Positions 3,501-48,074 of a DNA stretch of 64,000 nucleotides are shown here, in pieces (position 1 is the first letter of the stretch; every line of letters begins with the position of its first letter). The position numbers and the translations under genes were made by a program. A model generated the notes under the pieces. That model did not search any database. It was not told the DNA's origin and saw nothing but the letters and a program-made list of their open reading frames with translations. This DNA comes from OCS116 cluster bacterium AG-435-F03. Lineage in GTDB: Bacteria > Pseudomonadota > Alphaproteobacteria > MED-G09. The stretch is from positions 624,893 to 688,892 of the forward strand of contig QCOV01000001.1 of NCBI GenBank assembly GCA_003212795.1, read 5' to 3'.

Positions 3501-4658
3501 ACTTTCAACAGTTGGAGGTTCTCCTGGTCTTAATATTTTATATATTTCAAAAAGGGCTGATGTTTTATCAAAAGATTTATCAACTGCTAAAGTATTTCGA
3601 ACGAAAGGACTAAAATTTACATTATCTATTAGAAGAACTGGTATTTCATCTATTTTTTCAACTTCAAATGACGCCAATAATTCCTCAGTGATCTCGTCAC
3701 CAGCTTCAGCAAAAATTTCACCAGTAGAAAAATTAACAATATCTTCAGAAATAAATTTTCCTAATATTTCTTCATTTGAGATATATAAATCTTTAACTTT
3801 ATCATTTTGATCAAGAGTTCTTTTTGTGATTTTCTTTCCTGACTCAATAATTACTTTATTATTTTTTGCATCAATTAGATCATATACAGCCTTAGAACCT
3901 TTTAAATTTTCTGAAACAAAAGGTTTTTTCCAACCATCTTTTTGTCTTTTATGAATTTCATTTTTATAAAATAAGGATAGAATTTCTTGAGAATCAAAAC
4001 CTAAACTATAAAGAACAGTTGTGGCAGGAAACTTCTTTTTTCTATCTATTCTTGCATTAAGAATATCTTTAGCATCAAATTCAAAATCAAGCCATGAGCC
4101 TCTGTATGGTATTATTCTTGCTGCATATAGAATTTTACCAGAAGAGTGTGTTTTTCCCTTATCGTGATCAAAGAATACTCCTGGACTACGATGCATTTGA
4201 GATACAACAACTCTCTCAGTGCCATTAATAATAAATGTTCCATTACTGGTCATCAGTGGAAGATCGCCCATATAAACATCTTGTTCTTTTACATCTTTTA
4301 TTGATCTGGTTTCATTCTCTTCATCAACATCATAAACTATAAGTCTAAGAGTTACCTTAAGTGGGGCAGCATATGTAAGGCTTCTTTGGATACATTCGCC
4401 TGTGTCAAATTTTGGCTCATCAAATGAATAAGATATATATTCTATTGTAGATGACTCTGAGTAGTCATGAATAGGGAATACACCTTTAAATACATTTTCT
4501 AAACCTTTATTTAACCTTTCACCATGCAAAATATTTTTTTGCAAGAATAGATCGTAAGATAATCTCTGAATGTCAATTAAATTAGGCATTTCTGCAATAT
4601 TTTCAATTCTTTGAAAAGATTTCCTTATTCTTTTTCTAGCATTAAAATTTTCTGTCAT
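579..4658 (-). CDS. rpoB: DNA-directed RNA polymerase beta subunit
   Basis: 1359-aa ORF with RpoB hallmarks ([21 protein letters not shown]). Canonical position between rplL and rpoC. Confidence 0.97.
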
Positions 4659-7667: not shown

Positions 7668-7681
7668 ATTTAAAATACTGG

Positions 7682-7755
7682 CAGGAGTGGAGGGAGTCGA
7701 ACCCCCAACCCCCGGTTTTGGAGACCGGTGCTCTAGCCAATTGAGCTACACTCCT
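7682..7755 (-). tRNA. tRNA-Trp (anticodon CCA)
   Basis: Minus-strand cloverleaf aggagtg/cactcct acceptor stem, anticodon loop CTCCAAA, T-arm ggggg-ttcgact-ccctc. Canonical tuf-tRNATrp-secE position. Confidence 0.9.
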
Positions 7756-7765
7756 CCAAATAAAA

Positions 7766-8956
7766 TTACTCAACTATTTTTGAAACTACTCCAGCACCAA
7801 CTGTTCTGCCACCTTCACGAATAGCAAATCTAAGATTATCTTGCATAGCAATTGGAACTATTAGTTCAACATCCATTTCAACATTATCACCAGGCATAAC
7901 CATTTCAGTTCCTTTATCTAACTGACAAACACCAGTAACATCTGTTGTTCTAAAATAGAATTGAGGACGATAATTAGTAAAGAAAGGCGTATGTCTTCCA
8001 CCTTCTTCTTTTGTTAAGATATATGCAGAAGCTTTAAATTTTGTATGAGGGGTTATTGAGCCAGGAGCGCATAAAACCTGCCCTCTTTCAACCTGCTCTC
8101 TGTCAATACCTCTTAAAAGAATACCAACATTATCACCTGCTTCACCTTGATCTAAAAGTTTTCTAAACATTTCAACACCAGTACAAACCGTTTTTTGAGT
8201 TTCTTTAACACCAACTATCTCGATCTCTTCATTAACATTAATTACGCCACTTTCAACTCTACCAGTAACAACTGTTCCTCTACCTGAAATTGAAAAGACA
8301 TCCTCAATCGGCATTAGGAAAGGTTGGTCTTTAGGTCTTTCTGGTTGAGGGACATAACTATCTATTTGTGACATTAGTTCAAGAATAGCATTTTTTCCTG
8401 TTTCATCATTCGTTCCCTCAAGGGCTGCAAGAGCCGAACCCTTAACTATTGGAATGTCATCGCCAGGAAATTCATATTCATTTAAAAGCTCTCTTACTTC
8501 CATTTCAACTAAATCAAGTAATTCTGCGTCATCAACTTGATCAACTTTATTCATAAATACTGCCAAAGCAGGAACACCAACTTGTCTAGCAAGTAGAATA
8601 TGTTCCCGAGTTTGGGGCATAGGGCCATCAGCAGCAGAGACAACTAATATACCGCCGTCCATCTGAGCAGCGCCAGTGATCATATTTTTCACATAGTCTG
8701 CATGGCCTGGACAATCGACATGGGCATAATGTCTGTTTTCTGTTTCATACTCAACATGGGATGTTGCAATTGTAATACCGCGCTCCCTTTCTTCCGGCGC
8801 ATTATCGATCTGGTCAAATGCTGAAAACTCTGCCTTTCCTTCATCCGCCAGTACTTTGGTGATAGCAGCAGTTAGTGTTGTTTTACCATGATCAACATGA
8901 CCAATTGTACCAATGTTACAGTGAGGTTTGGTACGTTCAAATTTTTCTTTAGACAT
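7766..8956 (-). CDS. tuf: elongation factor Tu
   Basis: Real start [28 protein letters not shown] at 8956, with GGAG 12 nt upstream; the track ORF adds 5 codons. Contains the alphaproteobacterial-type NKVDQVDD motif. Confidence 0.97.
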
Positions 8957-9013
8957 AATATGTTTCTCCAAATATTAAAAACCGTAAACGGCTATAGTAA
9001 GCTTCGGACTTTA

Positions 9014-9087
9014 TGGAGCGGGTGAAGGGAATCGAACCCTCATCTTCAGCTTGGAAGGCTGTTGCTCTACCATTGAGCTACACCCGC
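9014..9087 (-). tRNA. tRNA-Gly (anticodon TCC)
   Basis: gcgggtg/cacccgc acceptor stem, anticodon loop CTTCCAA, T-loop ttcgatt, encoded CCA. Confidence 0.9.
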
Positions 9088-9115
9088 CTATCCATCCACC
9101 TAGCAGCTCTGCAAC

Positions 9116-9200
9116 TGGTGGAGGGGGTAGGATTTGAACCTACGTAGGCATAGCCAACGGGTTTACAGCCCGTCCCCTTTAACCACTCGGGCACCCCTCC
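9116..9200 (-). tRNA. tRNA-Tyr (anticodon GTA), long variable arm
   Basis: ggagggg/cccctcc acceptor stem, anticodon loop CTGTAAA, long extra arm, T-loop ttcaaat, encoded CCA. Resembles the E. coli tyrU-glyT-tufB arrangement. Confidence 0.9.
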
Positions 9201-13404: not shown

Positions 13405-13480
13405 GCCGACTTAGCTCAACTGGTAGAGCACCTGATTTGTAATCAGGGGGTTGGGGGTTCAAGTCCCTCAGTCGGCACCA
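13405..13480 (+). tRNA. tRNA-Thr (anticodon TGT)
   Basis: gccgact/agtcggc acceptor stem, anticodon loop TTTGTAA, T-loop ttcaagt, encoded CCA. Confidence 0.9.
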
Positions 13481-39779: not shown

Positions 39780-40019
39780 CTAGTTATTTATCTTTTTTTT
39801 AACAGGAACTGGATCATATCCATACCCACCCCAAGGATTACATTTTATAATACGAATGAAGGATAATTTAAAACCATAAAAAAATCCATGTTTTGAAAAG
39901 GCTTCCATTGCATAAGAAGAGCATGAGGGCTCAAACCTACATGACTTACCTAAAAAAGGTGATATCAAATATTTATACCCCTTAATTAATGTTATACATA
40001 TTTTACTTGCTATACTCAT
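39780..40019 (-). CDS. yidD: membrane protein insertion efficiency factor YidD
   Basis: 79 aa: [27 protein letters not shown]...[13 protein letters not shown] (DUF37/YidD signature). Confidence 0.9.
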
Positions 40020-40067
40020 AACTATAAAAATAATAAGTTATCTATATGCTATAAATTATTTCATTTT

Positions 40068-40097
40068 TTTATCCACAGAAAAATGGAGTTATCCACA
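40068..40097 (+). promoter_or_regulatory. two perfect DnaA boxes (TTATCCACA), direct repeats 21 bp apart
   Basis: TTATCCACA at 40068-40076 and 40089-40097, in the divergent region between the yidD-thrS operon and the candidate sRNA promoter. Confidence 0.6.
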
Positions 40098-40116
40098 AGA
40101 AAATGATTAACCTGAA

Positions 40117-40144
40117 TTGACCTGCATAAGTATCTATGTAAAAT
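40117..40144 (+). promoter_or_regulatory. sigma70-like promoter (-35 TTGACC, 16-nt spacer, -10 TAAAAT)
   Basis: Read directly at 40117-40122 and 40139-40144. It points into the GC-rich structured region. Confidence 0.5.
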
Positions 40145-40150
40145 AAATCT

Positions 40151-40373
40151 TGACGGTCGTAATGACCAATGGCCGTTGGGCGGGTGACATGCCGCTGTGA
40201 GGGTCGGATGGTCTCCGATCCATGGTGAAAGTAGAGGTAGCAATATCTCGAGGATAGCCAGCCAGAAGCCGGAAAGCTGGTCTGTAAAAGGAAGGAGCGC
40301 TGGGTTAGGGTAGCGAGATGTCAGTCTTAATCGGGGGCGATTAAGTCACACTAAAAGGGAGCTCGATGTGGGT
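40151..40373 (+). ncRNA. candidate structured small RNA of unknown family (about 220 nt)
   Basis: GC-rich island (about 50% GC against about 30% background) with perfect hairpins gggtcgga-tggtc-tccgatcc (40170-40190) and cttaatcg-gggg-cgattaag (40315-40334). It has its own promoter and ends in an intrinsic terminator. No convincing protein ORF. Confidence 0.5.
40345..40373 (+). terminator. rho-independent terminator (agggagc-tcgatgt-ggttccct followed by T7)
   Basis: G+C stem followed by TTTTTTT on the + strand; the reverse strand has only a 4-T tail. Bidirectional use is possible at this convergent junction. Confidence 0.6.
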
Positions 40374-40382
40374 TCCCTTTTT

Positions 40383-40844
40383 TTATTTCAATTCATTTAT
40401 ACAATTTTCAACAGCATCGAAAACCAATAGAACAGAGGCATGTCTTCCTTTAAAATCCTTAACTGGTTCAAAATATTTCAAATCATCCCATTTTCCTGAT
40501 GGAGGGGCGCCATCTTCCTTTAGCATATTGTACATTTCTTTTTTTATTTCTAAGAGCTCTTTTGAGTCTGATCCTATTATATTTCTTGCCATAACTGAGG
40601 ATGCTGCTTTACCAAGAGAACAAGCTTTAATTTCATGGGTGAAATCATTTACAATATTATCTTCCATATTTAAATAAACCGTAATTTTAGAACCACATAA
40701 TTTACTAACTACCGTAGAAGAGGAATCTGGTTTATCAAGCTTTCCTAATCTAGGAATATCTGATGATAACCTTAAAATATTTGTATTATATAAATCCTTA
40801 ATCACTTTTTTTCTTCCATGTAGTAATATTGTTCTTATCTTCAA
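40383..40844 (-). CDS. NifU/IscU-like Fe-S scaffold-domain protein (divergent)
   Basis: 153 aa, colinear by eye with the IscU/NifU N-domain (YNTNILRLSSDIPRLGKL...CGSKI...ACSLGKAASS...EPVK...RHAS). The ATG at 40844 overlaps cysS by 46 nt; the in-frame GTG at 40808 (8-nt overlap gtgattaa) is an alternative start. Confidence 0.6.
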   Translation of the reverse strand: MKIRTILLHGRKKVIKDLYNTNILRLSSDIPRLGKLDKPDSSSTVVSKLCGSKITVYLNMEDNIVNDFTHEIKACSLGKAASSVMARNIIGSDSKELLEIKKEMYNMLKEDGAPPSGKWDDLKYFEPVKDFKGRHASVLLVFDAVENCINELK

Positions 40845-47986: not shown

Positions 47987-48074
47987 TGGTGCGGACACCC
48001 GGACTCGAACCGGGACGGAGATAATCTCCTTCAGATTTTAAGTCTGATGTGTCTACCAATTCCACCATGTCCGC
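47987..48074 (-). tRNA. tRNA-Leu (anticodon TAA), long variable arm
   Basis: gcggaca/tgtccgc acceptor stem, anticodon loop CTTAAAA, long extra arm, T-loop ttcgagt, encoded CCA. Confidence 0.88.

Follow-up and report, generated by a model that had tools for sequence, protein, structure and literature searches.

The 64,000-nt stretch of contig QCOV01000001.1 of OCS116 cluster bacterium AG-435-F03 analysed here (the window) contains, between yidD and a gene for a NifU_N-domain (NifU-like) protein, what is probably a stand-alone gene for a structured non-coding RNA (ncRNA) of about 235 nt. The neighbouring genes yidD, thrS, NifU-like and cysS are all on the minus strand, and the RNA gene is in the plus orientation, divergent from yidD and, as the first-pass annotation of the sequence had described, convergent on the NifU-like gene. 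It lies between thrS and cysS, two aminoacyl-tRNA synthetase genes, and no gene downstream of it shares its orientation. The locus is marked by its guanine-cytosine (GC) content, which reaches 0.48 in 200-nt windows at positions 40100-40400, compared with about 0.27-0.35 on either side and 33% in the window overall. The highest 150-nt value of the entire 64 kb, 0.573, was found at the RNA locus; this is 4.6 standard deviations (SD) above the mean (0.327, SD 0.053) and is higher than the value of the tRNA cluster near 9.0 kb. The GC-rich stretch from which the first-pass annotation had proposed a small RNA (sRNA) at 40151-40373 was thus recovered, and with it a real element, although the RNA is predicted to end at about 40385 instead.

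The predicted boundaries of the gene are given by a promoter and a terminator (Table 1). The sigma-70-type promoter TTGACC-16-TAAAAT named in the first-pass annotation was recovered by a consensus scan. Its -35 hexamer is conserved across all clades of the RNA, with one TTGACT as the sole deviation, and the -10 hexamer differs among clades (e.g. TAAAAT, TAGGAT, TATGAT). Promoter-like sites as a class were not enriched in the region (4 found versus 6.9 expected), and the promoter is supported by its score and its conservation rather than by the number of sites. A strong intrinsic terminator is also present, but its hairpin lies at 40353-40381, with the T-run reaching 40384, and not at 40345-40373 as first proposed. 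Together they bound an intergenic gene model with predicted ends, of which the -35 hexamer and the terminator are kept in all clades, as for stand-alone sRNA genes in general, and the covariance model R1 matches the window at 40150-40384 with 266 bits. The stop codon of the NifU-like gene (40383-40385) abuts the T-run, and UUUU follows the hairpin in the minus-strand reading; to judge from the sequence, the terminator would probably serve both convergent transcription units. The terminator is 93% invariant, its loop included, which is more than a terminator should require, and it might have an additional role.

The plus strand of the locus folds with -90.6 kcal/mol (z = -3.9, none of 200 shuffles being as stable), compared with z = -2.2 for the minus strand in the same kind of comparison. 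RNAalifold, run on 12 and later on 16 variants of the RNA, predicted a consistent multi-helix fold, and with the 12 variants 15 of the 66 predicted pairs had changed on both sides. An explicit fold model was scored over 1200 pair cells in an alignment (A6) of 16 distinct variants. Standard pairs made up 98.4% of the cells, as against 32-49% when the 3' partners were slid by 1-3 columns, and 18 pairs showed double changes, as against 1-8 in the slid controls; the observed covariation score was reached by none of 500 shuffles. The comparison of homologous intergenic regions that had been suggested at the outset thus yielded compensatory double changes, and the helices are kept by them well beyond the controls. 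The pairs G.U account for 142 of the 1200 cells, and the helices, 98.4% paired on the plus strand, are only 86.6% paired when read on the minus strand. This asymmetry identifies the plus strand as functional, and the promoter and the U-tract are consistent with this. Conservation, covariation and the promoter and terminator scans therefore all bear out the initial proposal of a highly structured sRNA with a predicted transcription unit of its own.

From 5' to 3', the RNA would fold into the hairpin P1, the helix P2 closing a four-way junction of P3, P4/P4a and P5, then the hairpin P6 and finally the terminator. P1, P3, P4a and all five helices of P5 are well supported by double changes, with the most covariation found in P5. 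The P4a tetraloop is GCAA in the window (40240-40243) and GAAA or GCGA elsewhere, that is, GNRA in every variant. In the model P2 closes the P3/P4/P5 junction and forms a pseudoknot with the local hairpin H2; its pair 40190/40318 is U-A in the window clade and A-U in the second clade, with eight sequences each. H2 competes with an alternative extension of P2 over 40192-40195 and, being nearly invariant and having zero double changes, is unproven. P6 and the terminator are nearly invariant as well, and covariation is uninformative on all three; the sequence of P6 is conserved more than its pairing demands. The GACCA of loop L1 (40164-40168) is complementary to the UGGUC of loop L3 (40209-40213), and by our own estimate the chance of a 5-nt match between a 10-nt and a 5-nt loop is roughly 0.6%. 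Both loops are invariant, and a kissing interaction between L1 and L3 is plausible but unproven. Most double changes split the two clades of the RNA, while the pairs 10/23, 118/158, 119/157 and 128/150 (A6 columns) also vary inside the second clade, so the covariation evidence does not rest on one event. The first-pass annotation had rightly noticed stable hairpins, but its coordinates were 10-30 nt too low; the hairpins are P1 (40152-40177), P3 (40201-40221) and P6 (40326-40345). Its ccagc/gctgg stem, really at 40258-62/40276-80, had to be given up, as it is not conserved in the other clade and covariation favours the P5 pairing.

Table 1. Coordinates of the predicted RNA gene, its structural elements and the neighbouring features in the window.
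Feature	Position	Strand	Details
yidD	39780-40019	-	thrS next in order
DnaA box 1, TTATCCACA	40069-40077	+	exact 9-mer; about -78 from predicted RNA start
DnaA box 2, TTATCCACA	40089-40097	+	exact 9-mer; about -58 from predicted RNA start
Sigma-70-type promoter	40117-40144	+	-35 TTGACC 40117-40122, 16-nt spacer, -10 TAAAAT 40139-40144; 10/12 consensus match (consensus scan)
Predicted transcript of structured ncRNA, ~235 nt	40150-40385	+	ends predicted from promoter and terminator
P1 hairpin	40152-40177	+	8-bp stem 40152-59/40170-77, 10-nt loop L1 40160-40169 UAAUGACCAA; 100% paired in 16 variants, 2 double-change pairs
H2 local hairpin (unproven)	40180-40195	+	GCGG/CCGC 40180-83/40192-95, loop GUGACAUG; 100% paired, one C-to-U change keeps G.U
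P2, 5' strand UGACAU	40185-40190	+	long-range partner of 40318-40323; 91.7% paired overall
P3 hairpin	40201-40221	+	8-bp stem 40201-08/40214-21, 5-nt loop L3 UGGUC 40209-40213; 97.7% paired, 2 double-change and 3 one-sided pairs
P4/P4a	40223-40260	+	P4 40223-25/40258-60, purine-rich conserved 8x8 internal loop, P4a 40234-39/40244-49; P4a 99% paired, 2 double-change pairs
P5, long irregular hairpin of five short helices	40261-40311	+	holds 'SRP-like' segment; 9/15 pairs double-change; indels
P2, 3' strand AUGUCA	40318-40323	+	pairs with 40185-40190
P6 hairpin CUUAAUCG-GGGG-CGAUUAAG	40326-40345	+	stem 40326-33/40338-45; sole change U-A to U-G
Intrinsic terminator	40353-40384	+	12-13-bp hairpin 40353-40381, run of 7 T 40378-40384; 100% paired, 93% invariant columns
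NifU_N-domain (NifU-like) gene	40383-40844 as ORF	-	preceded by cysS; 140 aa in metagenome gene calls

Conservation is distributed unevenly over these elements. All columns of L3 are invariant, as are 95% of those of P6, 93% of the terminator, 90% of L1 and 78% of the block formed by J1/2, H2 and P2. The proportion falls to 50% in the P3 stem and likewise in the P4/P4a stems, to 29% in the linker before the terminator and to 27% in P5, the least conserved element. Overall, the loops and junctions are invariant, the stems are compensated and one arm behaves as a variable 'spacer'. Such a pattern is typical of RNAs with a defined tertiary fold, such as riboswitch aptamers, ribozymes and the scaffolds of ribonucleoproteins (RNPs), whereas in simple antisense sRNAs the main conserved element is a short seed. 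Because the loops, junctions and P6 are invariant while the compensated stems drift, we infer that the RNA acts through its fold rather than by way of a short antisense seed. Three further ideas were dropped, as none of them was seen by eye to be conserved across the clades: the P4 internal loop as a k-turn or T-loop, mimicry of a tRNA anticodon arm for ThrRS or CysRS, and an anti-terminator that would compete with the terminator.

The RNA was found in 16 distinct sequence variants belonging to two clades; identity is about 72% from one clade to the other and 86-97% among the members of the second. The carriers are marine metagenome contigs and metagenome-assembled genomes (MAGs) labelled Rhodobiaceae or Hyphomicrobiales bacterium, and the RNA always lies between the NifU-like gene and yidD, in the shared order cysS, NifU-like, an unannotated gap of about 360 nt, yidD and thrS. 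For this comparison we used the gaps of contigs with an identical yidD, of two yidD variants and of NifU-like homologues at 66-68% identity, and the RNA was found by nhmmer and alignments in every such gap. Hundreds of marine metagenome contigs, up to 1.47 Mb in length, carry proteins identical to ones from the window, and the host appears to be an uncultured marine alphaproteobacterium that is both abundant and streamlined.

A genome scan keyed on an alignment of the NifU-like protein, with mostly Hyphomicrobiales homologues at about 50% identity, gave one more copy, in the GTDB species representative L022, which was the sole RNA carrier among 80 loci. A scan of metagenomes with one exact DNA pattern, built to skip the abundant window clade, gave four genuine new copies, two chance matches and no new deep clade. 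Pilot scans of viral contigs with two patterns returned one chance match inside a coding region for one pattern and nothing for the other, and a comparison with annotated phages and plasmids showed no similarity to the RNA. With the covariance model derived from the 16 sequences, a single copy was found in the 64-kb window, and the regions flanking the NifU-like gene in 79 further Hyphomicrobiales genomes gave no match. The relatives L014, L017, L020 and L125 (NifU-like identity 49-56%) have neither gap nor RNA at the equivalent locus, and on these nearest RNA-less relatives the covariance model run with its filters off gave noise only (≤10.7 bits). As far as searched, that is, at the syntenic locus and with one exact DNA pattern, the RNA occurs as a single copy and only within a narrow lineage, which fits the lineage-specific sRNA that was among the identities first suggested.

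Some observations were made on the loci of these relatives and carriers. In L017, a relative with 1.27 Mb, an apparent 385-nt 'gap' after a cupin gene (about 4040-4215) is an uncalled yidD-like open reading frame (ORF; ...RCRPGGTHGYDPVP...), and in L020 the corresponding gap holds tRNA-Asp (3986-4062). On the carrier scaffold L003 (LUOE20-1_SAMN05991716-S001_METAG-scaffold_689) the NifU-like gene is linked through a run of N at about 2390-2400 to a CoA-transferase-like gene at its 3' end, and the latter gene then abuts the RNA terminator, with the breakpoint exactly at the terminator end. A replacement of the NifU-like gene was rejected in this case, the N-run being a scaffolding join or a structural variant.

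The covariance-model scan against Rfam that had been proposed for the locus reassigned the RNA to no known family. With Rfam 15 at the gathering threshold, the whole window gave five tRNAs only, and at E≤10 the locus in the window and two divergent variants gave only scattered, mutually inconsistent low matches; ARAGORN found no transfer-messenger RNA (tmRNA) in the window. The first-pass annotation had found no clean match to RNase P RNA, tmRNA, a B12 riboswitch or a T-box, and these results agree with it. RNase P RNA, which has a conserved P4 core, the regions CR-I to CR-V and about 300 nt or more, was rejected as there was no Rfam match and no P4 core, and as the RNA at about 205 nt without the terminator is too short. 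The tmRNA, including the two-piece alphaproteobacterial form, was rejected for lack of a tRNA-like domain, a tag frame and an Rfam tmRNA or alpha_tmRNA match, and the riboswitch classes (B12/cobalamin, T-box, lysine and others) for lack of a model match and of a downstream gene. The best sub-threshold match, to IS605-orfB-I RNA (RF03065) at 40050-40188 (+), had 20.2 bits versus a gathering threshold of 94.2 and E = 0.027 in a 401-nt search. In the alignment P1 corresponds to the model's terminal hairpin, but the match lies mostly on AT-rich promoter and DnaA-box DNA, and, with no transposase-type gene adjacent, it was judged to be due to chance.

Two identities that the first-pass annotation had considered, signal recognition particle (SRP) RNA and 6S RNA, could not be upheld. 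Like bacterial SRP (4.5S) RNA, the RNA is GC-rich and independently transcribed by prediction, and in the window its sequence includes a purine-rich stretch with GGAA. In SRP RNA conservation is highest in domain IV, whereas the candidate segment here lies in P5, the least conserved part, and differs in the second clade, where it is not kept; the three variants gave no Bacteria_small_SRP or large_SRP match at E≤10. With the RNA-polymerase-binding RNAs of the 6S/Ms1 type, which are abundant and stable and act by binding protein rather than by antisense pairing, the RNA shares a structured, independently transcribed form of about 180-300 nt and the protein-binding mode that we consider likeliest for it. 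A 6S RNA, however, forms one long, irregular, rod-like helix with paired 5' and 3' ends and a large central bubble, whereas the fold here is multi-branched, with six hairpins and a junction, and had no Rfam 6S match.

In its general character the RNA resembles the orphan ncRNA motifs found in GC-rich intergenic regions (GC-IGRs) by the GC-IGR/DIMPL approach of the Breaker laboratory (PMC6429828, PMC8632094, PMC11109978), which likewise occupy GC-rich intergenic regions of AT-rich genomes, have covariation-supported helices and no ORF, and are often narrow in range. The surveys of 26 (PMC8632094) and 50 genomes (PMC11109978) list no motif next to yidD, thrS or nifU, and PMC8632094 has just one motif associated with cysS, an upstream ORF that precedes cysS in Rhodobacterales and is unrelated to the RNA described here. 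No description of this RNA was found in the marine sRNA literature that was searched. The nearest precedent, by likeness of context and compared by description rather than by sequence, would be CcnA of Caulobacter crescentus, a 182-nt ncRNA located in the replication origin among CtrA and DnaA sites, whose CCCC loop acts by pairing with GGGG sequences close to ribosome-binding sites (PMC8959179). Both are stand-alone alphaproteobacterial ncRNA genes with sites for replication or cell-cycle regulators at the promoter and a 4-nt homopolymer loop. Unlike CcnA, the RNA here has about 235 nt and a GGGG loop, its perfect DnaA boxes lie upstream of the promoter, and the 64 kb examined bear no origin signature; inspection of the conserved upstream block by eye showed no CtrA box (TTAA-N7-TTAA).

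Apart from the two DnaA boxes upstream of the RNA promoter, the 64 kb have no exact match to the 9-mer, and boxes with one mismatch are not enriched in the window (17 found versus 22 expected). In an upstream alignment of ten variants from both clades, the boxes and their immediate flanks are invariant and the adjacent spacers vary. The box-to-box spacing is fixed at 20 nt from start to start, and box 2 lies 19 nt upstream of the -35 hexamer (18 in one variant). At the sequence level the locus thus shows what is expected of a DnaA-regulated promoter, namely consensus boxes that are conserved and positioned relative to the promoter. The boxes also overlap the region in which a divergent yidD-thrS promoter would have to lie. 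On the simplest reading, one or both of the divergent promoters would be controlled by DnaA in the role of a transcription factor. The 64-kb profile shows no sign change of the GC skew at 40 kb, and the genes on both flanks are on the same strand, so a replication origin at the locus is not supported. Between the yidD start and box 1 lies a further block, TAT(A)TTGCTATAAATTAATT at 40043-40062, which is invariant across the clades while its flanks vary; it may be the -10 element of the yidD-thrS promoter (minus strand), with a -35 element overlapping box 1.

As far as Rfam 15 and the searched literature show, the RNA is a previously undescribed structured sRNA family, and it belongs among the stand-alone structured bacterial ncRNAs rather than being a novel kind of system. 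On balance we think it probable that the locus is an independent plus-strand gene for an ncRNA of about 235 nt that acts in trans via its fold, is linked to DnaA and is restricted to a narrow lineage. The RNA would be transcribed from its own sigma-70-type promoter up to the strong intrinsic terminator and would act through a specific three-dimensional fold; as a stable RNA it would most likely bind a protein partner and less likely a small ligand, and DnaA would possibly modulate both its promoter and the divergent yidD-thrS promoter via the two boxes. That the RNA is a tertiary-structured RNA of a new class, either an RNP component or a sensor, which under direct DnaA control through the two phased consensus boxes couples replication or cell-cycle status to its function, is a possibility that we put forward only tentatively. 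More speculatively, the RNA might contact the acceptor ends of tRNAs, considering the UGGU(C) motif in L3, the GACCA mimic in L1 and the location between thrS and cysS. Motifs of the UGGU type serve T-box leaders and RNase P in their pairing to the NCCA-3' ends of tRNAs.

Several points weigh against this interpretation. The transcript and both of its ends are predicted, and the protein or ligand partner is purely putative. The variants fall essentially into two clades, so that the independent compensatory events are modest in number; P2 has one A.C mismatch in the second clade, and covariation is silent on the L1-L3 pairing, on H2 and on most of P2, all of which are invariant. The DnaA boxes could serve the yidD-thrS promoter only, or could titrate DnaA, leaving the RNA unaffected. 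As the search for distant homologues consisted of the genome scan by a neighbouring protein and one DNA pattern, a wider distribution is possible.

Among the other explanations, a regulatory sRNA acting by base pairing has to be considered, with L1 (AAUGACCAAU) or the GGGG loop of P6 as the accessible seed for putative target mRNAs, the rest as a scaffold and the 3' hairpin with its U-tail as the binding site of a chaperone. The own promoter and terminator and the intergenic position would suit such an sRNA, as would the A/U-rich linker before the terminator and the 7-U tail after it, and CcnA with its 4-nt homopolymer loop offers a precedent (PMC8959179). L1 and the P6 loop are indeed invariant and unpaired in the secondary structure, but nearly all junction and loop nucleotides of the core of about 170 nt are invariant too, not one seed; moreover, L1 is complementary to L3 of the same RNA, and covarying pairs preserve a multi-way junction that includes a GNRA loop. 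No target was found, no search aimed at one having been made. We regard base pairing as a rather unlikely mode of action. An orphan riboswitch or sensor, in which the terminator would control antisense read-through into the NifU-like/cysS operon, is improbable. Its junction and loop-loop architecture with invariant junctions resembles riboswitch aptamers, the pairings of 40192-40195 in H2 and in the P2 extension are mutually exclusive, and the gene converges on NifU-like/cysS with a shared terminator hairpin. On the other hand, no Rfam riboswitch class matched and no conserved anti-terminator alternative was found; the terminator is strong (12-13 bp and 7 U), P6 stands between it and the junction domain, and a downstream gene in the same orientation is lacking.

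Still less probable is that the conserved feature is a DnaA-binding DNA element, either origin-associated or titrating or reactivating DnaA, to which the transcript would be secondary. Two perfect, invariant boxes phased by 20 bp next to an AT-rich stretch would fit such an element, CcnA shows that an ncRNA gene can lie inside an alphaproteobacterial origin, and yidD is often origin-proximal in bacteria. There are two boxes only, however, the excess of one-mismatch boxes and the change of skew are both absent, the flanking genes lack the divergence typical of origins, and the compensatory helix changes and the G.U strand asymmetry would be left unexplained. It seems very hard to maintain that the RNA is a highly divergent housekeeping RNA (SRP, 6S, tmRNA or RNase P RNA) missed by the models in an AT-rich lineage. 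Such RNAs do stand out by GC in AT-rich genomes, as here, and a loose resemblance to SRP domain IV was what the first-pass annotation had seen; but the three variants and ARAGORN gave no match, the SRP-like segment is the most variable part, and six hairpins with a four-way junction fit none of 6S, 4.5S, tmRNA and RNase P RNA. A coding function has equally little to recommend it. The internal ORFs (38 amino acids on the plus and 60 on the minus strand) have no Pfam match, were never called and have no homologues in public protein sets, and the 38-amino-acid ORF has 29, 36 or 37 codons in other variants, in line with the initial view that the element holds no credible ORF. Only a 12-codon ORF (40163-40201) persists, and the suggestion that it encodes a small peptide or leader could draw on its ATG (40163) and in-frame TGA, which are intact in 16 of 16 variants. 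Its product is MTNGRWAGDMPL in the window and MTNYRW[AV]GDKPH or MTNNRWAGDKPH in the other clade. The start, however, lies in the invariant L1 and the stop in the invariant junction just 3' of H2, no Shine-Dalgarno-like sequence precedes it, and all but one of the codon differences are non-synonymous and fall on covarying positions of the RNA; the ORF is probably a by-product of RNA conservation.

The trans-acting, fold-based ncRNA gene that we prefer is likely to have an important role: genome-streamlined marine bacteria retain very little non-coding DNA, and here a 235-nt RNA is kept in conserved synteny, with invariant loops and compensated stems. Orphan structured RNAs turn up regularly. 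The present one adds a new, well-supported family with an alignment and a covariance model, its structure being unusually well supported for a single-locus find. Its coupling to DnaA boxes is distinctive, and the conserved, phased boxes, as read from the sequence, would be a concrete link between the replication initiator and an ncRNA. Even if its function should be mundane, the locus is useful for annotating MAGs, where the region is an unannotated gap.

Minor observations concern the genes around the RNA. The mechanically derived NifU-like ORF has 153 amino acids, a TTG start and a 47-nt overlap with cysS (40798-40844). The product of 140 amino acids called in metagenomes overlaps cysS by 8 nt only, so the true start of the NifU-like gene is probably near 40805. 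Five tRNA genes (Trp, Gly, Tyr, Thr and Leu) are present in the window, at 7679-9200, 13405-13480 and 47987-48074, and among them tRNA-Thr(UGU) has an apparent A discriminator and an encoded CCA end.

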